Assembly (NCBI GenBank): GCA_963721805.1
Contig: CAVRJY010000001.1
Location: 1,024,001 to 1,088,000, forward strand
Reading direction: 5' to 3'
DNA from: Nitrospirota bacterium
GTDB taxonomy: Bacteria > Nitrospirota > Thermodesulfovibrionia > Thermodesulfovibrionales > JdFR-86
Length of the DNA: 64,000 nucleotides
The position numbers were made by a program, and so were the translations under genes. The notes beneath the pieces were generated by a model. It was not told where the DNA came from. It worked only from the letters and a program-made list of their open reading frames with translations, and did not search any database. Of this stretch, positions 31,375-61,167 are shown piece by piece. The first letter of the stretch is position 1, and every line of letters begins with the position of its first letter.

Positions 31375-31442
31375 GTGACGCTCATTATAACATAGGGGCA
31401 ACATTGCTCACCTTCACGATATCTTCAATATTCGAAAGGGTG

Positions 31443-31589
31443 GAAAGCGCGCCAAATCGCGTGATACGTTGTCACGGCTCGCATCCTCGTCCTCAATGTA
31501 CGTCACAGTACACCTCCGGGTGCCACGGGCACCTCTTAAAAAAGGAAAGGGCCAGCCAGCCCTAGTCTGACGCTGATTTCGCGCGCTTT
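31443..31589 (+). repeat. Hairpin element A, copy 1
   Basis: GAAAGCGCGCCAAATCGCGTGATACGTTGTCACGGCT...GTACGTCACAGTACAC...CCTAGTCTGACGC-GATTT-CGCGCTTT; homologous to 35697-35821 (inverted) and 56359-56482. Confidence 0.85.
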
Positions 31590-31600
31590 AAGTTACTCTT

Positions 31601-31654
31601 GCATAATCGTGCGAGCGGTCAACGGCATTGATTTGGAGCGCGCTTTCGGGGGTG
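31601..31654 (+). repeat. Repeat B copy 1
   Basis: ATCGTGCGAGCGGTCAACGGCATTGATTTGGAGCGCGCTTTCGGGGGTG, identical core at 32536-32584. Confidence 0.9.
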
Positions 31655-31691
31655 AAGAGGTCGCGCGCTGCCCCCAATTAGGCAAGGTCTG

Positions 31692-31883
31692 CTATGCAAT
31701 CCCCAATTTCTTTTTCATGTCATCATTTGTCGTCCATTTTTTAGTCTTAGCCTTGACCTCAACAGCGGAGGCGTAATCCTTGCTGTCCTCTTGGGCCTCA
31801 CGGTTGAGTGGTATCTCAAACACCATATCGGGACGATAGAGTTTACCCTGTTCAGCCTTCGAAAAGTCGTATTCCTTCTTCAT
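31692..31883 (-). pseudogene. Chimeric antitoxin remnant (BrnA-like N-terminus + copy of the 33385 antitoxin C-terminus)
   Basis: MKKEYDFSKAEQGKLYRP fused to KDYASAVEVKAKTKKWTTNDDMKKKLGIA, which is identical to the end of 33385-33573. Confidence 0.65.
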
Positions 31884-31905
31884 CTTCCGCCCATAAGGAT
31901 AGGCA

Positions 31906-32238
31906 TCATCCCTTGATGATATCAACTATTGACGATATGACAACACCTAACTTTTCGTCCTTCAAACGCCCGATGCCATAAAGGATGATATGGTTGTCAG
32001 CGGTGAACAGGCGGTTAGGCCGGATATTGCTTGACTGCTTCAATCCGCCCGTGGAGAAATCCTCATCACCAAGGCCGATGGAGTATGAGTCGTTAACTGT
32101 TTTGCTTGTGATCTGGCAGAGTATAAGGTCATCTCCGCCCGGCGTTGCTATGACAAGGGCAGGGCGGCGTTTTGATTGCGTGAGGTCAGAAAATGGAAAT
32201 GGCACGACTACGACATCGCCCTTTACAAACTTACCCAT
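31906..32238 (-). CDS. PemK/MazF-family toxin
   Basis: KGDVVVVPFPFSDLTQSKRRPALV, ILCQITS, GGLKQSSNIRPNRLFT. Confidence 0.9.
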   Translation of the reverse strand: MGKFVKGDVVVVPFPFSDLTQSKRRPALVIATPGGDDLILCQITSKTVNDSYSIGLGDEDFSTGGLKQSSNIRPNRLFTADNHIILYGIGRLKDEKLGVVISSIVDIIKG

Positions 32239-32420
32239 GCCTCGTCCTCTTCGGGCCTAAGCCAATCCTTCTTAAGCGACGACTCGCTGGCCCCTGCGAT
32301 AGCCACGCCTTCCCTGACGACCTTGGCTTTAATGAAATGTACGAAATCCAAGACCTCGTCAAGGTATGGTTCAGGAACCTGCTCGATCTCGTGCATAAGG
32401 GCTTCTTTCTTTCCCATCAC
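32223..32420 (-). CDS. DUF2281-like antitoxin
   Basis: EIEQVPEPYLDEVLDFVHFIK...SESSLKKDWLRPEEDEAW; overlaps toxin start. Confidence 0.85.
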   Translation of the reverse strand: MMGKKEALMHEIEQVPEPYLDEVLDFVHFIKAKVVREGVAIAGASESSLKKDWLRPEEDEAWVSL

Positions 32421-32465
32421 CGCACCTCCTTTGTTCTAATATTATAGCTCATCCTTTCCCTTCCA

Positions 32466-32584
32466 CTATGGCAATCCCGCGCAGACGAGGGAGCCTCCAT
32501 ATTATATCCGAGCAATGGCGGTTTAGGATAATTATATCGTGCGAGCGGTCAACGGCATTGATTTGGAGCGCGCTTTCGGGGGTG
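32466..32584 (+). repeat. Repeat C copy 1 + repeat B copy 2
   Basis: CTATGGCAATC..GCGCAGACGAGGGAGCCTCCATATTATATCCGAGCAATGGCGGTTTAGGATAATTATATCGTGCGAGCGGT, repeated at 33848-33937. Confidence 0.9.
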
Positions 32585-32629
32585 CTATCCTCGACGGCTT
32601 CTGTTATAATTTCGCATGAGGCTACGTAT

Positions 32630-32914
32630 ATGACGTTAGTGGATACTATCAAGCGGGATGCTGAGGCACTCAAAGCCAGGTTTCACCTAAAGCGCATCGG
32701 GATATTCGGCTCGTATGTGCGCGGAGAAGAAACGCCCGAAAGCGATCTCGACATCCTTGTTGAATTCGAGACTGATTATGAGACTTTCAATAATTATACT
32801 GACCTGAAGTTTTACCTCGAAGACCGTTTTGGCAAGAATGTCGATGTCGTTACCGTTGATGCCCTTAAACCACAGCTGCGGGATATTATTTTAAACGAAG
32901 TATCCTATGCCTAG
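32630..32914 (+). CDS. MNT (minimal nucleotidyltransferase) antitoxin
   Basis: [24 protein letters not shown] motif; TG-n-TATAAT at 32602-32610. Confidence 0.9.
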
Positions 32915-33248
32915 ACATTACAAGCTCTACCTTGAGGATATGCTTGTTTCGGCTGAGAGCATACTTGAGTATGTGAGCGGATTATCCAAGGACGCATTGC
33001 TTGCGGATAAAATGAGAGTCGATGCCGTAGTGAGGAACTATGAAATTATTGGCGAAGCAGCAGGCCGTATCCCTCAGGAGATTAGGGAGAAATACCCAAA
33101 GGTTGAGTGGAGGCGGATTACAGACCTTAGGAATATCCTGATACATGAATACTTCGGCATTAATCGCAATATCCTGTGGGATATCACTGCCAATCACCTG
33201 CCCCAGCTTGCAGCAGAGTTGAAGGCCATTGTTCCCAACGAGGGTTAG
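32907..33248 (+). CDS. HEPN/DUF86 toxin
   Basis: [24 protein letters not shown] (Rx4H) motifs. Confidence 0.9.
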
Positions 33249-33347
33249 CGGTCAACGGCATTGATATGGTTCTCGCGCTTTAACGTGGCCTGTGCATAAT
33301 CGTGCGAGCGGTCAACGGCATTGATATGGAGCGCGCTTTCGGGGGGG
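33247..33347 (+). repeat. Repeat B copies 3 and 4 (tandem)
   Basis: AGCGGTCAACGGCATTGATATGG at 33247 and again within GCATAATCGTGCGAGCGGTCAACGGCATTGATATGGAGCGCGCTTTCGGGGGGG (33294-33347). Confidence 0.9.
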
Positions 33348-33384
33348 ACGCGGTCGTGCGCTGCCACCAATTAGGCCGTGGCTG

Positions 33385-33573
33385 TTATGCAATCCCCAAT
33401 TTCTTTTTCATGTCATCATTTGTCGTCCATTTTTTCGTCTTTGCCTTAACCTCGACAGCGGAGGCGTAATCCTTGTTGTCTTCCTCGGCCTCCTTGAGGC
33501 GCTTATACTCCTCGTAATCGAGGATAACCGCGATGGGCTTATTGTTTTCCTTGATGATCTGTGTCTTAATCAC
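33385..33573 (-). CDS. Phd/YefM-like antitoxin
   Basis: IIKENNKPIAVILDYEEYKRL motif; GTG start overlaps the RelE-like stop region. Confidence 0.8.
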   Translation of the reverse strand: MIKTQIIKENNKPIAVILDYEEYKRLKEAEEDNKDYASAVEVKAKTKKWTTNDDMKKKLGIA

Positions 33574-33829
33574 GATACGCCTCCTGTCTGTGCTTGACCT
33601 CATAAACGCTCAATGTGTTCTCCTCGATTCCGAAGATCACCCGATAGTCACCGATACGGAGCCTGAGAAACCCTCCATGTTTGCCTCGAAGGGTTTTAAT
33701 GTCGAAGCCCCCCGAAGGGTTGTCCGCGAATGACTCGATGGTTTTCACGATCCTGGCCGCATCGCTTCGATTGCCCTTCGCCAAGCGTTGCAATTGCTTG
33801 TCCGCATGTTCGGAGTACCGTATTTCCAT
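33566..33829 (-). CDS. RelE/ParE-family toxin
   Basis: YSEHADKQL, DIKTLRG, RLRIGDYRVIF, VKHRQEAY motifs. Confidence 0.9.
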   Translation of the reverse strand: MEIRYSEHADKQLQRLAKGNRSDAARIVKTIESFADNPSGGFDIKTLRGKHGGFLRLRIGDYRVIFGIEENTLSVYEVKHRQEAYRD

Positions 33830-33847
33830 TTTACCCTTTCTACCCCG

Positions 33848-33969
33848 CTATGGCAATCTCGCCTTTGCGCAGACGAGGGAGCCTCCATATTATATCCGAG
33901 CAATGGCGGTTTAGGATAATTATATCGTGCGAGCGGTAAAGGGTATTGACTGGAGTTCTCGCGCTTTCG
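33848..33969 (+). repeat. Repeat C copy 2 + degenerate repeat B copy 5
   Basis: Near-identical to 32466-32550, then diverged GGTAAAGGGTATTGACTGGAGTTCTCGCGCTTTCG. Confidence 0.85.
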
Positions 33970-34422
33970 TTGGTGCCACTGGCATCCCAAAGGAAAAGGC
34001 TGCAATTTCGGTAATGCGTCAATTTAAAGTTTAAGGGTAATCGTACAAGTTTAATAAAGGATTAATAAGAAGAAGCCTACGAGAGAAGCTGACGTGAATA
34101 TGCTTGACGCTGCCATTGCAATGATGCATTGCACAATAACGGTTGATTATGTCCAAAACGTGGACGTTAATAGCAACACCATATTCAATGCAAATGTGAA
34201 ATAGCCCACAGCTATTTATTAATATAATCATATTTTAATAGCGGTAAGGATCGATTTGAGAACCTATCATCCGAGGAAGCAAAAGGTTTCTCATGCAAGT
34301 GCGACGATGTAAATTGGGGGAAATAGCCCTAACGACGCAAGTCTTGTTCAATCAATATAGCCTTGACATGCAAGCCTTCGAAATGTTAAATTTAGGAAGA
34401 AAAATTTTAGGGGGTAATTAGC

Positions 34423-34866
34423 ATGAGCGATAAGGCCGATAAGCTGCTTGACCTGATTAAGCATTACCAGGAAATAATCGACTTATACGAACCCTTGGTA
34501 CTTGAGGCACGCGAGAATTTGAGCACTATTCGTAAGGCTATTGATCTTGTGTTGAGGGATGCTCACCCGACAGACCAAGAGTCACTGTTTGATGATAACG
34601 CCCAAAGAAGTCCCGGTATTGGAAGATACGCCGATAAGACGCTCGCCGAAGCTATCAAAGACATTTTAACTAATAATCCGAGGCCGCTAACGGCCGCTGA
34701 AATTACGCGTCGTGCTATCGATGGAGGCTTTACGAGCAATTCAGCTGATAAACGCCGCGACGTTTCAGTATGTTTAAGTCGGCTTAAAAAACGCAGCGAG
34801 ATCGGATCAGATATGACTGATGAGGGTATGGTTTATAGATTGGCGAAGGGAGGTGAGCAAACTTGA
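34423..34866 (+). CDS. AT-rich hypothetical protein, coiled coil + winged-helix-like C-terminus
   Basis: TLAEAIKDIL....PLTAAEI......GG.......VSVCLSRL pattern; AGGGGG RBS; TTGACA upstream. Confidence 0.65.
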   Translation: MSDKADKLLDLIKHYQEIIDLYEPLVLEARENLSTIRKAIDLVLRDAHPTDQESLFDDNAQRSPGIGRYADKTLAEAIKDILTNNPRPLTAAEITRRAIDGGFTSNSADKRRDVSVCLSRLKKRSEIGSDMTDEGMVYRLAKGGEQT

Positions 34867-35351
34867 GAAGAATTGAAGGGCTGCTAATCGATGGATCGCC
34901 GTTAGCAGTTCCGCTAAAAATGAAGACTCGCTATCTGGTGTAGTTGGCACTGGGCCGGATAGCGAGTCGTTAGGCGATCCCCGCCTTTGGCGGAGGGTAA
35001 AACATTTTCGTGAGGATTAACACTTAAAAGGCTTGATCTTACAAGCTAATTATAGTGCCTTCCTTTGCGCATTGTCAAGCCCAAACTTAAAAACAGGAAA
35101 GGTCCTCCATGACTAAGAAACCTGGCTATAAGCTTGTATTCACAGCCTATATCACCACGCGAAACGGTACGCGGATTTACGCGTATCAACGGGGCCTCAA
35201 GGCTTTCCCAATATGGGTTAAAGACAAGAAGTAAAGGGTGAGTTGATGGTGGGGGGAGAAACATATCCCTCACCATCAACCTCTTTCCACTAACTATAGT
35301 TAGTCGTAAGTTAATAGAAAACGCACGGTTTTGAATTTTTCCTATAACCTT

Positions 35352-35821
35352 CGGTTTATATATAAACCGTAGTATATCGCTTTTTTCATTTAGTTGTGAT
35401 TCAATACAGGATGACTATGATAGGCTCATTTTTGAGGGTGCTGAAAGCAGGGTCGGAGGCCGATGGACAGCGCGAAAAACGTATCCGAACATCCGAACAC
35501 GGGAGAGGTCAAATTATCGATGTTTTTCGTTACCTTGGACTGTTTTTTGTCTGTTCATTCGAACGCAATAAAAAACGCGCGCACGTGCGCGCGCGATATT
35601 CCTAACTATGCCTAAGCGCGAGCATCAGAACATGCTTTTTCCGATCAAGTCTTTGACCGTGAGGCGCGGAGGCAGCGGCTGGGCCGCGCACTTCGCAAAG
35701 CGCGATAAATCGCGTCAGACTAGGAACGGCGAGGAAAACGTCCGCAAGTGTACTGAGACGTACTCTGGAGGACGGATTTCCGAAGCCGTGACAACGTATC
35801 ACGCGACTTTAGCGCGCTTTC
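35352..35821 (-). repeat. Long non-coding element D+B+A, copy 1 (includes hairpin A copy 2 at 35697-35821)
   Basis: Reverse complement aligns block-for-block with 56359-56790. Confidence 0.8.
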
Positions 35822-35855
35822 ACAGAAGCCCCCGTATGCCGTATAATGGTGCCCT

Positions 35856-36944
35856 ATGAAAATCGCGATAACTGGCCTAGCTAATTCAGGTAAGACTACT
35901 ATCTTTAACGCTTTGACGGGCCTCCGGGTCGAGACGACGATCTACCCGACGACCGGCGGCGAGCCGAACCTCGGCATCGTCAAGGTGCCGGACGAGCGCA
36001 TCGACAGGCTCTCGGCGATCTTCAAGCCCAAGAAGACCACGCACTCGACGGTGCAGTACGTGGACTATCTGGGGCTCACGAAGGGCGACATGAAGCAGAA
36101 CCGGAGCGTGTTTGAGTTCGTCAAGGACTCGGATGCGCTAGTGCACGTCGTGCGCGCCTTCGAGGACCCCTCTGTGATGCATCCGCTCGACAGCGTGGAC
36201 GCGGTCAGGGACGTGGCCACGGTCGAGACCGAGCTGCTATTTGGGGACATCGAGCTTATCGACCGCAGGCTTGAGGGCATGGAACTCGGGCTAAAGCGGG
36301 GCAAGAAGCCGAACGAGGACGAGAAGCGCGTGCTCCTGAAGTGCAAGGAGGCCCTCGATGCCGAGCGGCCGCTTCGGGACGTGGAGTTCACGGAGGACGA
36401 GGACAAGGCGGTCAGCCACCTGCAGTTCATGTCCATCCTGCCCGAGACCGTGGTGCTGAACATCGGCGAGGCCGACCTGAACACCGAACGCGCCGCGAAG
36501 CTCCAGGCCGAGGTCGAGGCGTACTACGCCGGGAGGCGCGGGGTGACGGTCGTGACGCTATCGGGGAAGGTCGAGATGGACATCGCGGAGCTCGCGCCTG
36601 ATGAGGCCCGCGCGTTCCTGGACGACCTTGGGATCAAGGAGCCCGCTCTGCACCGGCTCATAAAGCTCTCATACGCCAACGTGGGGCTTATCTCGTTCAT
36701 CACCGCGGGCGAGGACGAGGTGCGCGCATGGGCCTTAAGGAAGGGCACCGACGCCCTGCACGCGGCCGGAAAAATACACTCAGACATACAGCGCGGGTTC
36801 ATACGCGCGGAGGTCGTCTCGTGCGAGGACTTCTTCAGGCTCGGCGGCTTCAGCGAGGCCCGCGACAAGGGGCTGCTCAGGCTTGAGGGCAAGACCTACG
36901 AGGTGAGGGACGGCGACATCATCAACTTCAGGTTCAACGTCTAG
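35856..36944 (+). CDS. ychF: Ribosome-binding ATPase YchF
   Basis: GLANSGKTT, VKVPDERID, AGKIHSDIQRGFIRAEV, LEGKTYEVRDGDIINFRFNV. Confidence 0.95.
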   Translation: MKIAITGLANSGKTTIFNALTGLRVETTIYPTTGGEPNLGIVKVPDERIDRLSAIFKPKKTTHSTVQYVDYLGLTKGDMKQNRSVFEFVKDSDALVHVVRAFEDPSVMHPLDSVDAVRDVATVETELLFGDIELIDRRLEGMELGLKRGKKPNEDEKRVLLKCKEALDAERPLRDVEFTEDEDKAVSHLQFMSILPETVVLNIGEADLNTERAAKLQAEVEAYYAGRRGVTVVTLSGKVEMDIAELAPDEARAFLDDLGIKEPALHRLIKLSYANVGLISFITAGEDEVRAWALRKGTDALHAAGKIHSDIQRGFIRAEVVSCEDFFRLGGFSEARDKGLLRLEGKTYEVRDGDIINFRFNV

Positions 36945-43754: not shown

Positions 43755-44735
43755 ATGGAGTTTCAGCGAAGGATAGAGGACGAGCTCGGAGGGCCGCTTC
43801 GGGCAGGCGCGGTCGAGGTCATGCAAGTCAACCTCGGCTACCGCTGTAACATGTCATGCAGCCACTGCCATCTCAATGCAGGCCCGGCAAGCCAGAATGC
43901 GATGGACAGCGCGACGGCCGACGCGGTGCTCGATGCCCTCATCGCATCCAGCGCTGCATGCCTTGACGTCACGGGAGGCGCGCCGGAGCTGAACCCGGTA
44001 TTCAGGCGGATGGTCGCGAGCGCCAGGGCCGCCGGAAGGCACGTGATCGCCCGGAGCAACCTGACCGTGTTTTTCGAGGACGGGCAGCAAGACCTGCCGG
44101 AGTTCTATGCAAGCCATTCGGTGGAGGTCATCGCCTCGCTGCCGGCCTATACCGCGGGCGAACTCGACCGCGTGAGGGGCAGGGGGACGTTTGAAAAGAG
44201 CATCCTTGCGCTTAAGAGATTAAACGCGCTGGGCTACGGGGATGAAGGATCAGGCTTGGCCCTCAACCTCGTGCATAACCCGCCTGGCAATATGCTGGCC
44301 GCAAGGCAGGAGGCGCTCGAGGCCGATTACAGGGCCGAGCTCGGGCGCAGGCATGGGATCAGGTTTAACAGCCTCTACGCGTTTTCGAACTCGCCGATAG
44401 GCAGGTTCAAAGAGCAGCTCGTCCGCTCGGGGCAGCTCGAAGATTACATGGGAATGATCGAGGGCGCATTCAACCCCTCGAACGTCGACGGCCTGATGTG
44501 CAAGCGGATGATAAGCGTCGCGCCGGACGGCGGGCTATATGACTGCGACTTCAACCAGGCGCTCGGGCTCGGGCTCGACGGGGCCGCATCGGTCCGGGAC
44601 GTCAAGGCGGACGGGCTCTCAGGCAGGCGGATAAACGTTGGCGAGCACTGCTATGCCTGCACGGCGGGGCAGGGCTCTACCTGAATTGGCGCGATGTCAC
44701 CCCGGCCGGTCGGCCTGGGAACGGGAAGGAGATAG
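43755..44735 (+). CDS. arsS: ArsS-type radical SAM/Cys-rich protein, predicted selenoprotein (UGA at 44682-44684)
   Basis: CNMSCSHC, VTGGAPELNP, LMC, YDCDFN, HCYACTAGQGST-UGA-IGAM; downstream SECIS-like hairpin; next in-frame stop TAG 44733-44735. Confidence 0.8.
44700..44719 (+). promoter_or_regulatory. Bacterial SECIS-like hairpin
   Basis: CCC-C-GGCC-GGTC-GGCC-T-GGG stem-loop starting about 15 nt after UGA. Confidence 0.65.
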
Positions 44736-44738
44736 GGA

Positions 44739-45758
44739 ATGGATCAGAAATCATCCGAGGAGGCGCGGCTGGAGATCGCGACGTTCGCGGGCGGCTGCTT
44801 TTGGTGCATCGTCTCGCCGTTTGAGGTCTTGGACGGCGTCAAGGATGTCCTGGCCGGGTATACCGGCGGGCAGACGGACAACTCGGGCTACGAGGAGGTC
44901 TCATCCGGCACGACCGGACACTTCGAGGCCGTGCAGGTCAGTTTTGATCCCTCGGTGGTATCTTATGGCAAGCTGCTCGATACCTTCTGGCGCCAGATTG
45001 ACCCGACCGACCCTGACGGCCAGTTCGCCGACCGCGGGACGCAGTACCGCACCGCGATCTTTTATCACTCGCCCGAACAAAAGGCCCTGGCCGAGAAATC
45101 CAGGGCCGAGCTTGAGGCCTCGGGCAGGTTCAAAAATCCTGTGGTCACCGAGATACTGCCAGCCGCGAAGTTCTATCCTGCCGAGGACCGCCATCAGGAC
45201 TACCACAAGCGCCACTCGCTCAGGTACAAATACTACCGGATGCATTCAGGGCGCGACGGGTATCTCAGGCAGGTCTGGGGCGGCGAGCCGCAGAGGACGC
45301 GGCCGCTGAGGAAGTGGATGCTCGAGGACAGGCCCTCAAAAGAGGAACTCAGAGGGCGGCTCACGGAGCTGCAATACAAGGTCACGCAGGGGCACGACAC
45401 CGAGCCGGCGTTTGATAACGAATACGCGGATAACAAGCGCGAGGGCATATACGTCGACATCGTCTCGGGGGAGCCACTGTTCAGCTCGCTGGACAAGTAC
45501 GACTCCGGCACCGGCTGGCCGAGCTTCACAGAGCCCCTGGAGCCTGAGAACATCGTCCTGCGCGATGATTCGGCATTCTTTACTGACCGTACGGAGGTGA
45601 GCAGCAAATATGCGGGCTCGCACCTGGGCCACGTATTCGACGACGGCCCCCCTCCCATCAGATACAGGTTCTGCATGAACTCGGCCGCGATGAGGTTCAT
45701 CCCCAAGGAGGACCTCGAAAAGGAAGGCTACGGGGAGTATCTGGCGCTCTTCCGGTAA
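44739..45758 (+). CDS. msrAB: Bifunctional methionine sulfoxide reductase MsrA/MsrB
   Basis: [44 protein letters not shown]. Confidence 0.95.
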
Positions 45759-45764
45759 GGGCGC

Positions 45765-46364
45765 TCAGGCCTTGCGGATGAGCCTGAGGTAATCCTCGTA
45801 AGTATCGAGGTCAGAGAGCGTATCGACCGTGGCGTGGCTCAGGCCTGCCCGCACGATCAATCCGATCGTCTCGCTGCATACAGTGGGCGCGCCCCACTCG
45901 ATGCCCTGAAATATCTCAGGGTGCGGCGCGGTCATGCCTATGAGGTAATACCCCCCGTCGGACGCCGGGCCCAGGACTACATCCGAATTCCCAAGCGCGA
46001 CGAACGCGCGCATGATCACCTCGCGGCCGAGCCCCGGGATGTCCGCGCCGGTAATTATCGCCTTGGCGGCCCCCGAACTTAACAGCGCCGCAAGCGCGTT
46101 AGACATGATCTCTCCGAGCCCGCAGCCTGTTTGAGGCAATAGTTCCTCACCCGGAAGCCACCCGCTGAACTCACCCAGCTTCCCGGCTGGCGAGTAAAAC
46201 ACGCGCCTTTCGTAGCCCGCGTTTTGAGGGCTGGTATTAAGCATCACCCTTTCGGCCACTTCGCGGTATGCGTCCGCGGCCTCGGCCTCGCCAATTGCGT
46301 TAGCGAGGCGCGTCTTGACCGCTCCGGGCTCGGGGAACTTCATCATTATCCCGTAGAGGTTCAA
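45765..46364 (-). CDS. rSAM/selenodomain-associated transferase 1 (TIGR04282/DUF2064-like)
   Basis: K.PEPGAVKTRLA, Q.G.GLGE.M, GADIP, VLGPASDGGYYLIG, DLDT..D; TTG overlaps upstream stop. Confidence 0.88.
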   Translation of the reverse strand: MNLYGIMMKFPEPGAVKTRLANAIGEAEAADAYREVAERVMLNTSPQNAGYERRVFYSPAGKLGEFSGWLPGEELLPQTGCGLGEIMSNALAALLSSGAAKAIITGADIPGLGREVIMRAFVALGNSDVVLGPASDGGYYLIGMTAPHPEIFQGIEWGAPTVCSETIGLIVRAGLSHATVDTLSDLDTYEDYLRLIRKA

Positions 46365-54194: not shown

Positions 54195-54203
54195 CAATTT
54201 AAG

Positions 54204-54276
<73 letters not shown>

Positions 54277-54358
54277 TGCGTGAACATTGTAAACCACCGC
54301 GGTGCATCTATTCAACCAGCATGGCGCGGTCACCCGGTGCTCATGCCCAGCGTGCATA

Positions 54359-54434
54359 TGGCGCGCCTGAGAGGGTTCGAACCTCCGACCCTTGGCTTCG
54401 GAGGCCAATGCTCTATCCACTGAGCTACAGGCGC
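54359..54434 (-). tRNA. tRNA-Arg(CCG)
   Basis: GCGCCTG acceptor, TTGGC-CT-CCG-AA-GCCAA anticodon arm, GGTTCGAACCC, encoded CCA. Confidence 0.97.
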
Positions 54435-56358: not shown

Positions 56359-56790
56359 AAAGCGCGCCAAATCGCTTGATACGTCGTTGGGCATCGAAGA
56401 CTCGCCCTCTATGTACGTCACAGTACACCATCGGGCGGTCTTCTTGCCCTGCCTTGTCTGAAGCCGATTTGGACGCGCTTTCGGGGGGCACGGACGACGG
56501 ACGCCCCCCGCGCCCCACAAGGTCAACGGCATGATTGGAGGGCCGGTCATAGGTATAGTTATGCATAACGCGCGCGTGTGCGCGCATTTTTTTAGAGCGT
56601 TCGAATGAACAGAGAAAAAACAGTTTAACCTCGCGGATTTCATCGTTTTTTAACGGCTTTCCGTGTTCGGGTGTTCGGATCTGCTATTCGTGCTCTCAAC
56701 TGGCCTCCAGCCTCGTTTCCGCGTCCTCAAATACGACCATATTGGCCTCATGCCGTATTGAAGCACAAATCAAATGAAAAATCGATAGTA
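56359..56790 (+). repeat. Long non-coding element A+B+D, copy 2 (hairpin A copy 3 at 56359-56482)
   Basis: AAAGCGCGCCAAATCGC...ATGTACGTCACAGTACAC...GATTTGGACGCGCTTTC, then blocks matching the reverse complement of 35375-35660. Confidence 0.8.
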
Positions 56791-56919
56791 ATTAAAAACA
56801 ATGATTTATAAAAAGTTGAGGCCACGAAAATATTTTTAAACAGTAGTTAATTGATAAGCTATCCGAAGTAAATAAATTAATAAATGTGCAAAGAAAGGGT
56901 GCAAAACTGTTAATGAAGC

Positions 56920-59115: not shown

Positions 59116-61167
59116 CTACGCTTTCCTGACTTCAGCCCCTGTCTTCGCTGAGAGGTCAGCTATCAACCCCGCGTGCACCGTCTCGACCTCGTCGTCCGTA
59201 AGCGTGCGCTCCGCCGAGCGATACCGGATATTAAACGCGAGGCTCTTCTTGCCCTGCGGGATGTTCTTGCCCTTGTATGAGTCAAAGACGTGCGCTCCAG
59301 CAATAAACTCCGACGGATAGGCGCGTATCATGCGCTCGATATCACCTGCGCGCGCGGTCTCGTCGATCAGAAGCGCGATGTCACGCTCTATCGCCGGATA
59401 GCGCGGGATTGGCGTGTATTTCCTGATGCCCCCAAGCGCGAAGCGCAGCGCGTCGATCTCCAGCTCGAACACGAAGACATCCGAGCGCGCCTTCACGTCA
59501 AACGCAGCGACCACGTCGGGGCGGAGCGCGCCTATAAACCCGGCCCTGCGGGGGTCGATCATCACGTCAGCGGCCTTGCCGGGCTGCAAGAAGGGCTCGA
59601 GCGTCGGCGTGAAATCGACCCCGCCGATCTTCATACCAGCGAGCATACCCTCCAGAGCGCCCTTCATCAGGTAGAACTCTTCGGTCGTATCTTTGTACAG
59701 CGAAGGGACCTTCTCGCGGTACAACAGTCCGCCGATGAGCGGGACCTCGTCCGCCTGTATGCCGCCGTTTTTGTAAAACGCCTTCGCGGTCTCAAAGAGA
59801 CGGATATCGCGCATGCCGCGCGAGAAGTTATGGCTGAACGCGCCTATCAGCGCCGGGACGAGTGTGGTGCGTAAGAGTCCGTCTTCCTGCCTTAGCGGGT
59901 TTTGGATAGGCACGCACTCGCGCCGGCGGTCATTGGCCGCGAGCCTCAGCAGATCGAGGTGCGCCGGGTTTAAAAAGCTCAGCGTGATCTGCTCGCTGAA
60001 GCCCTCCTTGCGAAGCAGGGTCTTAACGTCCGAGATAAACGCGCGCTCCGTGAGGTCGGCCTCGGACGCAATGCTCGTCATCGGCATCGCGGAGGGGATG
60101 TTGTTATACCCGTAGAGCCGCGCGACCTCCTCGATCACGTCCGCGTCCATCGTGATATCCGGCCTCGACGAGGGCGGGACGACCTCGAAGCTCTCGCCCA
60201 TTGCCTTAACGCTGTCAGCGACCTTATTAACTATCGCGACGATCTCGTCGTCAGTGAGTTTTATCCCGAGCATCCGGTTGACCTTCTCGAACTTGACGTT
60301 GATCTTAAGCGGCTCGTACTTGGCTGGGTATGCATCGACGAGCGCCCCGGCCATGCCCCCTGCGGTCCCGATGATCAGGCGCGTCACGCGGTCGAGCGCC
60401 GTGGCGACTATCTGTATGTCCGTGCCGCGCTCAAATCTGTATGACGACTCGGTCTTTAGCCCGAGGGCCTTGGAGGTCTTTCTTACGGATTCCGGCCTGA
60501 ACCATGCGCTTTCGATGAACAGGTCGGTCGTCTCTTGGCGGACCTCGCTGTTTAGGCCGCCCATCACGCCCGCGACCGCCACCGGCCGCTCCGCGTCCCA
60601 TATCAGGAGGCTGTCTTCGGGGATCGCGCGCTCGACCTTATCGAGCGTGGCCATCTTGAGTCCGGCCCCCGCGCGGGCAACGCGGATCTTCTGGCCCTTG
60701 AGGTACGCGAGGTCAAACGCGTGCAGCGGGTGGCCGAACTCTAAAAGCACATAGTTGGTGCAGTCCACGACGTTGTTGATCGGCCTGATGCCGCAGATCT
60801 CAAGCCTCTGGCGCATCCACTCGGGGGATTCGCCGATAGTGACGCCGTGTATCACGCGCCCGGTGTATCTGGCGCAGAGGTCGGGGTCGGCTATCTCGAT
60901 TGGGAAGCTTTCATCGCTCTGCTCGGCGACCGCGTGCTCCGGCATCGTGATTGCCGCGCCAGTCAGCGCGTGCACCTCGCGGGCGATTCCCAGTATGCTC
61001 AGGCAGTCAGGGCGGTTCGGGGTGACGTTGACTTCTATCGCCAGATCATCGCCAACCCGCTCCATGCCCTCGACCTCCAGCCCGGCCATCGTGAGGCGCG
61101 CGTCGAGCTCCTCGGGCGTGAGCCCTGCGTCGATGAGTTCCCTCAGCCAGTTATACGATATGCGCAT
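59116..61167 (-). CDS. pheT: Phenylalanine-tRNA ligase beta subunit (short form, no B2 tRNA-binding domain)
   Basis: ISYNWL, VTPNRPDCLS, RPINNVVD.TNYV, SYRFERG, RDIA, KKSLA, RTLTD motifs. Confidence 0.96.
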   Translation of the reverse strand: MRISYNWLRELIDAGLTPEELDARLTMAGLEVEGMERVGDDLAIEVNVTPNRPDCLSILGIAREVHALTGAAITMPEHAVAEQSDESFPIEIADPDLCARYTGRVIHGVTIGESPEWMRQRLEICGIRPINNVVDCTNYVLLEFGHPLHAFDLAYLKGQKIRVARAGAGLKMATLDKVERAIPEDSLLIWDAERPVAVAGVMGGLNSEVRQETTDLFIESAWFRPESVRKTSKALGLKTESSYRFERGTDIQIVATALDRVTRLIIGTAGGMAGALVDAYPAKYEPLKINVKFEKVNRMLGIKLTDDEIVAIVNKVADSVKAMGESFEVVPPSSRPDITMDADVIEEVARLYGYNNIPSAMPMTSIASEADLTERAFISDVKTLLRKEGFSEQITLSFLNPAHLDLLRLAANDRRRECVPIQNPLRQEDGLLRTTLVPALIGAFSHNFSRGMRDIRLFETAKAFYKNGGIQADEVPLIGGLLYREKVPSLYKDTTEEFYLMKGALEGMLAGMKIGGVDFTPTLEPFLQPGKAADVMIDPRRAGFIGALRPDVVAAFDVKARSDVFVFELEIDALRFALGGIRKYTPIPRYPAIERDIALLIDETARAGDIERMIRAYPSEFIAGAHVFDSYKGKNIPQGKKSLAFNIRYRSAERTLTDDEVETVHAGLIADLSAKTGAEVRKA

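Follow-up and report, generated by a model that had tools for sequence, protein, structure and literature searches.

How do toxin-antitoxin (TA) genes come to be stacked between two core genes of a bacterial chromosome when neither an integrase nor a transposase is visible next to them? This question is raised by a 4.4-kb island in a 64,000-nt stretch of DNA (the window) from a Nitrospirota bacterium of the order Thermodesulfovibrionales, corresponding to C1:1024001-1088000, where C1 is contig CAVRJY010000001.1 of the source assembly GCA_963721805.1 (2.78 Mb, nine contigs, 94% complete). A preliminary description, made from the letters of the window alone, had recognised an AT-richer island framed by two inverted copies of a hairpin repeat, A1 and A2, with a shorter repeat, B, at the boundaries of the TA modules inside, and had proposed an integron-like system of cassette capture. 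The GC content indeed drops to 0.44-0.54 at window positions 31440-35840, relative to 0.63-0.65 on both sides and to genome runs of 0.60-0.65, and the island is flanked by two divergent core genes, which code for an FG-GAP protein (minus strand) and for YchF (plus strand). On balance, we consider it somewhat probable that the locus is a small horizontally acquired islet of three TA pairs and two or three orphan open reading frames (ORFs), one of about 60 in this genome that are fenced by inward-facing copies of A, and that the fences are boundary modules at which cargo is exchanged by recombination.

The hairpin repeat A and the islets between its copies

Element A is an imperfect hairpin of 123 nt with conserved asymmetric internal loops, of which BLAST and iterated nhmmer searches recovered 232 copies in the 2.78-Mb genome. 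Its consensus ends are AAAGCGCG...CGCGCTTT, and the tail end is sharp (...GCGCTTT). As had been stated, A1 and A2 represent this one element in inverted orientation: their arms at 31454-31479 and 35784-35809 are 96% complementary, and single strands of both fold better than shuffled sequences (z -3.31 for A1 and -5.48 for A2). A1 owes its greater length of 147 nt to an extra terminator-like hairpin in its loop (31548-31563, minus strand). In an alignment of 38 diverse copies, with A2 as its first row, 85.4% of the cells of a 44-pair hairpin pair, compared with 76.4% in shuffles and 29-47% in shifted-register controls; 28 of the 44 pairs have changed on both sides, and the number of double-change cells, 147 as against 53 in shuffles, was reached by none of 500 shuffles. 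Since the best-conserved positions include unpaired internal loops (TCAGACAAGG in the head arm and ACGCAGTATCA in the tail arm), the alignment suggests that one folded strand of A is recognised by a protein.

A is an order-wide hairpin repeat that has been massively expanded in this genome. When 150 other genomes of the order were scanned with a covariance model, 24 of them, spread over five families, gave full-length A-like hairpins (50-88 bits), and a strict pattern scan of all species representatives yielded 34 loci, nearly all of them in metagenome-assembled genomes titled 'Nitrospirae bacterium'. Rfam holds no entry matching A. In other genera, the A-like hairpins have an added outer stem of about 28 bp (GAACCTGTCTCAAAATTGATTCTGAAGCG / CAGCCAGAAGCGATTTTGAGACAGGTTC), which brings the unit to about 180 nt, and three copies of this older form are present here (C1:633974, C1:175992 and C2:542754). 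Truncated copies also occur as tandem arrays of three, at C1:456398-456634 (model positions 55-122, every 83 nt) and at C1:962560-963040 (model positions 10-111, every 191-194 nt).

The two ends of A, which we call head and tail, face different DNA. Among the 192 full-length copies, the 500-nt flanks have a GC content of 0.508 on the head side and 0.617 on the tail side, the head side being lower in 168; with the repeats and 60 nt masked, the values are 0.521 and 0.619, and the head side is still lower in 163 of 192 (p 2e-26). Consecutive copies standing head to head enclose 67 intervals with a median length of 1515 bp and a GC content of 0.504, those standing tail to tail 64 intervals with a median of 9375 bp and 0.623. 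The 61 head-to-head intervals of 60-10,500 bp make up 5.13% of the genome and hold 62 of its 220 low-GC segments, or 82.0 of 265.8 kb (31%), so that low-GC DNA is enriched about sixfold within head-to-head pairs. The island of the window is one of these 61 intervals (4107 bp, GC 0.472). The bracketing of variable accessory cargo by repeats, which had been described for this locus only, is found as a genome-wide rule. Of the 169 ORFs in 52 other islets, 60 could be assigned to a Pfam family, and the cargo includes TA systems, a methylase together with Mrr, KAP NTPase, Abi_C, HEPN, PLD and HNH families, as well as insertion sequences (ISs) of the IS481 and IS200 types. The IS481-family element is present in six near-identical copies (98.6-100%) with a transposase of 344 aa (270 bits on NF033577), and all six lie within head-to-head A intervals, in a screen that covered the islets.

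An asymmetry is added by X, an AT-rich non-coding module of 356 nt on the head side of A, with 57 copies in the genome (nhmmer). X is one-sided: it is missing from 26 of the 61 intervals and present exactly once in 35 (adjoining the left A in 13 cases and the right A in 21, with one at neither end). No interval has X at both ends, where about 4.5 would be expected from the margins. In the window, the right end of the island is a 560-bp composite of X, a degenerate head module and A2, which the first reading of the sequence had overlooked and which has about 30 other copies; within its X, the minus strand has two terminator-like hairpins, at 35595-35576 and 35501-35480.

Could A simply be a selfish repeat? 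Repetitive extragenic palindromic sequences (REPs) are known IS targets, and repeats resembling miniature inverted-repeat transposable elements (MITEs), such as ERIC and Correia/NEMIS, are imperfect palindromes of about 120-180 nt that lie between genes and possibly act as promoters or terminators. If A were of this kind, with no role in cargo, its units, with or without B and X, would have settled independently at AT-rich edges, where they would be harmless or useful terminators, and the TA array would be a local duplication. We regard this as distinctly unlikely, despite several points in its favour: the high copy number, the sharp tail end of A and the sharp end of its head module, the maintenance of the hairpin by compensatory changes, the terminator-like features in and beside A and X, the spread of A-like hairpins in the order, and the finding that the two copies of A that fence an islet show no relation in subfamily. 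Moreover, in at least four different copies of A the head arm is interrupted, at one identical position, by an IS30-family element of about 1.1 kb (C2:396.9-398.3, C1:387.2-388.3, C1:759.6-760.8 and C2:367.1-368.2 kb), which makes the A hairpin a specific IS target; its transposase has 326 aa (279 bits on NF033563), and three copies of the element are 99.7-99.9% identical, with an apparently broken transposase frame. Independent insertion alone, however, leaves unexplained the strict head-inward polarity, the sixfold enrichment of low-GC DNA within head-to-head pairs and the fact that X never occupies both ends, and neither target duplications (see below) nor a mobilising enzyme were found for A.

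The comparison with REPs can be taken further. A is non-coding and intergenic, occurs in hundreds of copies, folds into a hairpin with compensatory change, serves as an IS target, and shows no terminal repeats beyond the hairpin and no target duplication, all of which it shares with REPs or with REPINs, the high-copy doublets of inverted arms that form a hairpin (PMC3337134, PMC3116915, PMC3390384; excerpts). A GTAG or CGTC tag, which marks one end of a REP palindrome in the excerpted account of PMC3733652, is missing from the consensus ends of A. Pseudomonas REPs, furthermore, mark old core DNA and avoid atypical regions (PMC3390384, excerpt), whereas A repeats fence atypical DNA and do so with fixed polarity. 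REPINs have their cognate, usually single-copy REP-associated tyrosine transposase (RAYT), for which we found no counterpart. A look-up of Y1 enzymes, proposed in the preliminary description, returned six PF01797 genes, all of them in identical copies of a 602-bp IS200-type element that encodes a 144-aa Y1 transposase (C1:42301, 366622, 1252034 and 1452182; C4:138543 and 146508; two of the six inside X modules). This element has the hairpin CCCCGTGGCTTGCCACGGGG at both ends, unrelated to A, and PF01797 has no match in four relatives rich in A, G002, G003, G006 and G035, with 7-23 scored A-like hits. Mobilisation by a RAYT was therefore rejected. In the literature outside subscription journals, we found no paper that pairs Nitrospirae with REP, REPIN or RAYT, and none on hairpin repeats that bracket islets.

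The head module B and the toxin-antitoxin shell

Inside the island, three adjacent pairs of small genes match toxin and antitoxin families of types II and VII by Pfam and NCBIfam, in agreement with the three pairs named before: DUF2281/MazF-PemK on the minus strand, MNT/HepT on the plus strand and ParE-RelE/Phd on the minus strand. The five copies of B start at 31601, 32536, 33247, 33294 and 33924, all on the plus strand (nhmmer), and lie 0-116 nt from the ends of the operons, B3 overlapping the stop codon of HepT; both their number and their place at the TA boundaries had been described correctly. So had the likeness between the 3' half of B, an extension starting with GATTTGGAGCGCGCTTTC, and the tail arm of A. 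The further statement that B can fold was not borne out, as four B-containing stretches fold no better than their dinucleotide shuffles (z +0.28, +0.87, +1.35 and +0.54).

The preliminary description had allowed that the repeats might occur at this locus only, as after a simple tandem duplication. They are not so limited: next to the 232 copies of A, there are 57 of B by nhmmer, and a 22-mer from the core of B occurs 58 times, compared with none in a reversed control. As 48 of the 57 copies have an A head no more than 40 nt away and keep one orientation relative to it, B normally is an appendage of A and represents the commonest, 34-nt form of its head module. The most conserved part of B is the 12-mer GGTCAACGGCAT, which occurs 202 times with at most one mismatch (16 times in the reversed control); 146 of these copies lie 0-120 nt to the head side of an A, 143 of them in one orientation. 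The 12-mer is present at 145 of 206 A heads, at a distance of 20-49 nt, and heads without a canonical B have it in another context. Column identity is higher in the B core than in A (0.92 vs 0.84), and the core has a sharp outer end after ...CGGCAT(TGAT). The B 22-mer was found in none of the 150 other genomes of the order, and the head module, B with its 12-mer, is specific to this lineage. A reading of B as a sigma-70 or sigma-54 promoter was rejected: the spacing of the hexamers misfits by eye, and a promoter scan gave only 9/12 sites through B2 and B3.

The inner copies of B belong to larger duplications, which had also been overlooked. B1 and B4 open a common segment of about 225 nt that reaches the last 29 codons of the downstream gene (D1, 31600-31799 = 33293-33492, 91% identity over 200 nt), and B2 and B5 close a common promoter-side segment that is 100% identical over 67 nt (D3, 32479-32561 = 33867-33949, 96% identity over 83 nt). 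Judging from these alignments, both minus-strand TA operons occupy one 'shell' with different genes inside, formed by B and a conserved 3' tail on one side and by a conserved promoter module and B on the other. Only seven B copies in the genome have the tail-arm-like extension, five of them in the island, which also holds four of the nine B copies that do not adjoin an A head. Because the inner copies are embedded in duplications of 83-225 nt, local duplication and recombination explain them at least as well as cassette capture does. At C1:39.6 kb, a third TA pair is preceded by the same module of promoter and B; of its two genes, the downstream one matches DUF2283 and the upstream one has no Pfam match. 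Beside this pair, at C1:38.9-42.3 kb, lie genes that by eye are Vsr-like, restriction-enzyme-like and cytosine-methylase-like, together with an IS200 copy; the stretch would be a small defence island.

These data bear on a second alternative, a site-specific cassette system, which we hold to be unlikely. The core of B, with its 12-mer, would here be the crossover site, and circular TA cassettes with one B each would integrate at a resident B, leaving direct copies on both sides; the enzyme might be XerC/XerD or some other tyrosine recombinase, or else an HUH enzyme directed by the A hairpin. In function this would resemble an integron, though it would not be one. Such a system would account for the five direct B copies that delimit three TA cassettes, and for a hicBA pair on contig C5 that lies between a full A-B unit and a truncated A-arm-B unit, with direct copies of B on both sides. 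It would also account for breakpoints of homology within the B core, as the similarity of B3 starts and the identity of B5 with B2 stops inside ...GCGAGCGGT..., and cassettes 1 and 3, if circularised, would have one contiguous conserved block, D3-B-D1. The substrates of HUH nucleases and of integron integrases combine a hairpin with a conserved motif at a fixed distance, a layout that the A hairpin and the 12-mer may be said to resemble, and the higher conservation of the B core and its sharp outer end could be read in the same way. However, B has neither a fold nor dyad symmetry, its extended and its non-canonical copies are concentrated in this one island, and the common flanks run on for 83-225 nt past B, as in ordinary duplication. 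A tandem arm-B duplication at C4:176.7 kb has no cargo at all, no recombinase gene was found in or beside the 53 islets screened (400-10,500 bp; that of the window and 52 others), and a dedicated enzyme would have to be very young, given the absence of the B 22-mer from the 150 genomes of the order.

Our preferred reading, an acquired islet between boundary modules, builds on the anatomy, copy numbers and polarity of the repeats and on the covariation of the hairpin, together with the lack of integron, RAYT, target-duplication and Xer-site features. The fence comprises three parts: the A hairpin, the 12-mer as a head signature at a fixed distance, and X at no more than one end of an islet. A, B and X would be boundary modules recognised by proteins, and recombination at the conserved head modules, or right beside them, would bring in or exchange cargo. 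The simplest route would be homologous recombination, for which B and the arms offer many near-identical sequences; its main rival is a dedicated site-specific enzyme. A may additionally act as a transcriptional insulator, a role that fits the terminator-like hairpins in X and in the A1 loop and the promoter-like site that leads from the end of A2 to ychF, the first hexamer of which is formed by the final bases of A2.

Several observations weigh against this reading. The head-side GC content is 0.497 for the 126 paired copies of A, but the effect is much weaker for the 79 unpaired ones (0.573 vs 0.62), and 130 of the 220 low-GC segments, including large integrase-bearing islands, have no A nearby. 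Of 11 A-like loci outside this genome, only six have the lower GC content on the head side, and the polarity may be special to this lineage. The partner copies of A at an islet resemble each other no more than random pairs do (0.783 vs 0.773, p 0.18), a result which holds no information on how pairs arise. Breakpoints within the B core are what a site-specific crossover predicts. Neither an enzyme nor an excision product or strain variant came to light, recombination at the head modules is itself inferred, and the suggested insulation derives from consensus terminator and promoter scans.

Integrons, transposons and Xer modules compared

In attC sites, the box sequences are RYYYAAC and GTTRRRY. 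Next to the copies of B, inspection by eye revealed neither a GTT-type partner box nor attC-type boxes, and the repeats are not recognisable as attC, just as had been claimed. An attC site is an imperfect hairpin with paired R and L boxes, and a cluster of attC sites lacking an integron integrase (CALIN) consists of two or more sites that share a strand and are spaced by less than 4 kb, in the excerpted definitions of PMC4889954. The five B copies do lie on one strand within 2.4 kb, but A1 and A2 are inverted. Like integron arrays and CALINs (PMC4889954, excerpt), the island has small cassettes, many of them with TA or defence genes, and a direct conserved site on one strand with no integrase nearby. 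Unlike them, its B is unfolded and lacks an R-box-like GTT core by eye, its A copies stand inverted at the ends, and the conserved blocks that surround B extend over a promoter and into a coding region.

A complete integron carries IntI, a tyrosine recombinase with an IntI-specific extra domain. The look-up of tyrosine recombinases suggested earlier gave seven PF00589 genes in the genome, and the best of them reaches 126.5 bits on the integron-integrase model TIGR02249 (cut-off 265), although in an assembly that is 94% complete the absence of an integrase is unproven. This best scorer passes the XerD model (335.1 vs 329.6), and a second protein stays just below the cut-off for XerC (332.6 vs 335.15). 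None of the PF00589, PF01797, IS481 or IS30 genes found in the genome falls inside the window, which fits the earlier remark that no integrase or transposase is visible there.

By these features, the island is not an integron or an attC array. That it is the remnant of a classical chromosomal integron, with B or A as a divergent attC, has next to no likelihood: a CALIN would fit direct repeats that lie on one strand at intervals under 4 kb and surround small TA cassettes, some of them with a promoter, and TA cassettes are typical of chromosomal integrons (PMC13108822, excerpt), but B is not a hairpin, A, which is one, stands inverted at the ends and is dispersed in 232 copies, and no integron integrase was found. 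Of the original proposal of integron-like capture, there remain repeats that occur genome-wide and bracket cargo, while the unfolded B, the inverted outer A copies, the missing integron integrase and the placing of the inner B copies in local duplications speak against the rest.

In mobile insertion cassettes, passenger genes are framed by IS-like inverted ends, and the islet might be such a non-autonomous transposon, with A (or A and B) as long terminal inverted repeats, X as a subterminal binding region and a transposase acting in trans. The inverted A copies at both ends, the difference between the ends, with X at no more than one of them, and the variable cargo would agree with this. We nevertheless judge it very improbable. 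At 58 A-to-A units the longest flanking direct repeat is 4 nt, the same as in shuffled pairs, and at 191 single A units the longest shared word follows the distribution of the control, apart from a single case of 16 nt. Each islet occurs once only, and between islets only IS elements and short head flanks are common. The IS200, IS481 and IS30 families, which were the transposase families searched individually, have ends other than A or B. The idea of a composite transposon is weakened likewise, as there is no target duplication and no duplicate islet, and the partner copies of A are not alike. From MITEs and mobile insertion cassettes in general, the A units differ by the lack of target duplications and of a parent IS with the same ends, by their head-inward polarity towards low-GC DNA and by the one-sided X.

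The pdif modules of Acinetobacter plasmids, which are small accessory modules, often with TA genes, between two inversely oriented Xer recombination sites, offer another comparison. An Xer/dif site has 28 bp in an 11-6-11 layout, two inverted arms of about 11 bp around a spacer of 6-8 bp. Like pdif modules, the islets are bounded by inversely oriented copies of one element, and genes for XerC and XerD are present in the genome. Unlike them, the bounding element is a 123-nt hairpin plus 12-mer without a 28-bp dyad, and it is chromosomal instead of plasmid-borne; in the consensus of the A-B junction no Xer-type dyad was found, the best being 5/9.

A bolder proposal, to which we assign a rather low probability, is that the A hairpin, the 12-mer and the one-sided X are the cis sites of an undescribed recombination system of this Nitrospirota lineage, able to dock, stack and swap small modules of defence and TA genes at about 60 places in the chromosome. 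Integron cassettes and pdif modules would be its functional parallels, except that its site would join a hairpin to a motif and its enzyme would be neither an integron integrase nor a RAYT; the island would consist of three stacked modules separated by hybrid B sites. If, on the other hand, the repeats merely mark tolerated foreign DNA, they add one more intergenic repeat family from a phylum that has been little studied. Descriptions of REPs, MITEs, integrons or Xer modules leave three features without an explanation, namely the strict head-inward polarity, the sixfold concentration of low-GC DNA and the limit of one X per islet, and these features make it testable how defence and TA islets enter and leave a chromosome without an adjacent integrase or transposase. 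The B-delimited TA array of the window is the best site in this genome in which to seek hybrid junctions or excision products.

Features of the island and its surroundings

The coordinates of the island and its two flanking genes are collected in Table 1. Plasmid and phage collections gave nothing beyond one match, in which mazF/DUF2281 of the first TA operon are 68% identical in DNA to a Nostoc plasmid, the DUF2281 candidate aligning with the DUF2281 gene of that plasmid. A perfect promoter-like site at 35078-35049 lies on the strand opposite to the ORF of 41 aa.

Table 1. Repeats, genes and promoter-like site of the island, in window positions
Feature	Position	Strand	Evidence and remarks
FG-GAP repeat protein, 614 aa	29560..31404	-	ORF, Pfam FG-GAP; core flank, start 39 nt from A1 tail
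A1	31443..31589	-	nhmmer E 1.7e-24, model 1-123; tail (31443) toward core gene, head (31589) toward islet
D1 copy 1	31600..31799	+	B, extension and 3' end of last gene of TA operon 1
B1, canonical head module of A1	31601..31655	+	core 31601-31637, 12 nt from head, followed by tail-arm-like extension GATTTGGAGCGCGCTTTCGGGGG
ORF, 77 aa	31692..31925	-	no family; last 29 residues common to Phd-like antitoxin of cassette 3
MazF/PemK-type toxin	31906..32238	-	PF02452, E 4.7e-8
DUF2281-type antitoxin candidate	32223..32420	-	PF10047, E 3.9e-4, under curated cut-off
D6/D3 copy 1 with B2	32453..32585	+	promoter-side module of minus-strand TA operon 1; ends in B core (32536-32567) and extension
MNT (MntA-like nucleotidyltransferase) antitoxin	32630..32914	+	PF01909, E 6e-16; NF047752, 49.6 bits, below cut-off of 60
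HepT (HEPN RNase) toxin	32907..33248	+	PF01934, E 4.8e-29
B3, partial core	33247..33283	+	nhmmer model 14-36; starts at HepT stop, then A-arm-like stretch and spacer into B4
B4, full core and extension	33294..33348	+	nhmmer; start of D1 copy 2
Phd/YefM-like antitoxin	33385..33603	-	PF02604, E 8.7e-7, just under cut-off; TIGR01552, 23.3 bits, above cut-off of 20.8
ParE/RelE-type toxin	33566..33829	-	PF05016, E 1.8e-10; TIGR02385, 28.6 bits, above cut-off of 27.9
D6/D3 copy 2 with B5	33835..33976	+	left part identical to copy 1 up to ...TCGTGCGAGCGGT; remaining B5 core and extension diverged
ORF, 147 aa	34423..34866	+	weak HARE-HTH match (PF05066, E 1.2e-3, under cut-off); nothing in NCBIfam
ORF, 41 aa	35109..35234	+	ORF list; no Pfam or NCBIfam family
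X	35285..35639	+	nhmmer E 9.2e-102; carries ATCCGAACA-type repeats
Degenerate head module of A2	35640..35696	+	...TTTGACCG... replaces ATGCCGTTGACC motif, then GGCAGCGGCTGGGCCGCGCACTTCGC; covered by about 50-113 other copies, compared with dimer centres
A2	35697..35821	+	nhmmer E 5.7e-31; head (35697) toward islet, tail (35821) toward ychF
Promoter-like site TTCACA-17-TATAAT	35819..35847	+	11/12 consensus matches only; just upstream of ychF
ychF GTPase	35856..36944	+	core flank; PF06071, E 7.4e-34

The flanking genes allow a comparison with relatives. The order FG-GAP/UppS/CdsA is kept in the loci of seven relatives, and in the six of their loci that were fetched ychF is absent within about 8 kb upstream and A, B and X were not found by nhmmer. 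BLAST with the 561-bp X-B-A unit gave nothing in 30 relatives, an exact 24-mer of the A tail arm had no match in genome contigs or in metagenome contigs, and a scan of metagenomes with the FG-GAP protein found no relative. One sequencing run matched, a freshwater sediment metagenome with 0.06 of the sampled words; its contigs over the window are only 200-700 nt long, and the sole 'joints' in these short contigs are inverted A copies.

In an Rfam scan of the window only tRNAs pass the gathering score, and at E<=1 the island yields one spurious microRNA match. ARAGORN predicts a tRNA-Gly(gcc) of 96 nt at 60619-60714, where the Rfam tRNA model is silent at its gathering score. Another A (minus strand) with an adjoining X (minus strand) lies at 56359-56812, where it borders a stretch of low GC content (0.51-0.54, 56-58 kb); the window contains no A to close it, and two tRNA genes are located 2 kb away (54203-54434). 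Finally, the cumulative GC skew climbs across the window to a peak at about 45 kb (44000-46000) and then declines, and the peak could be a replication terminus or a point of rearrangement.

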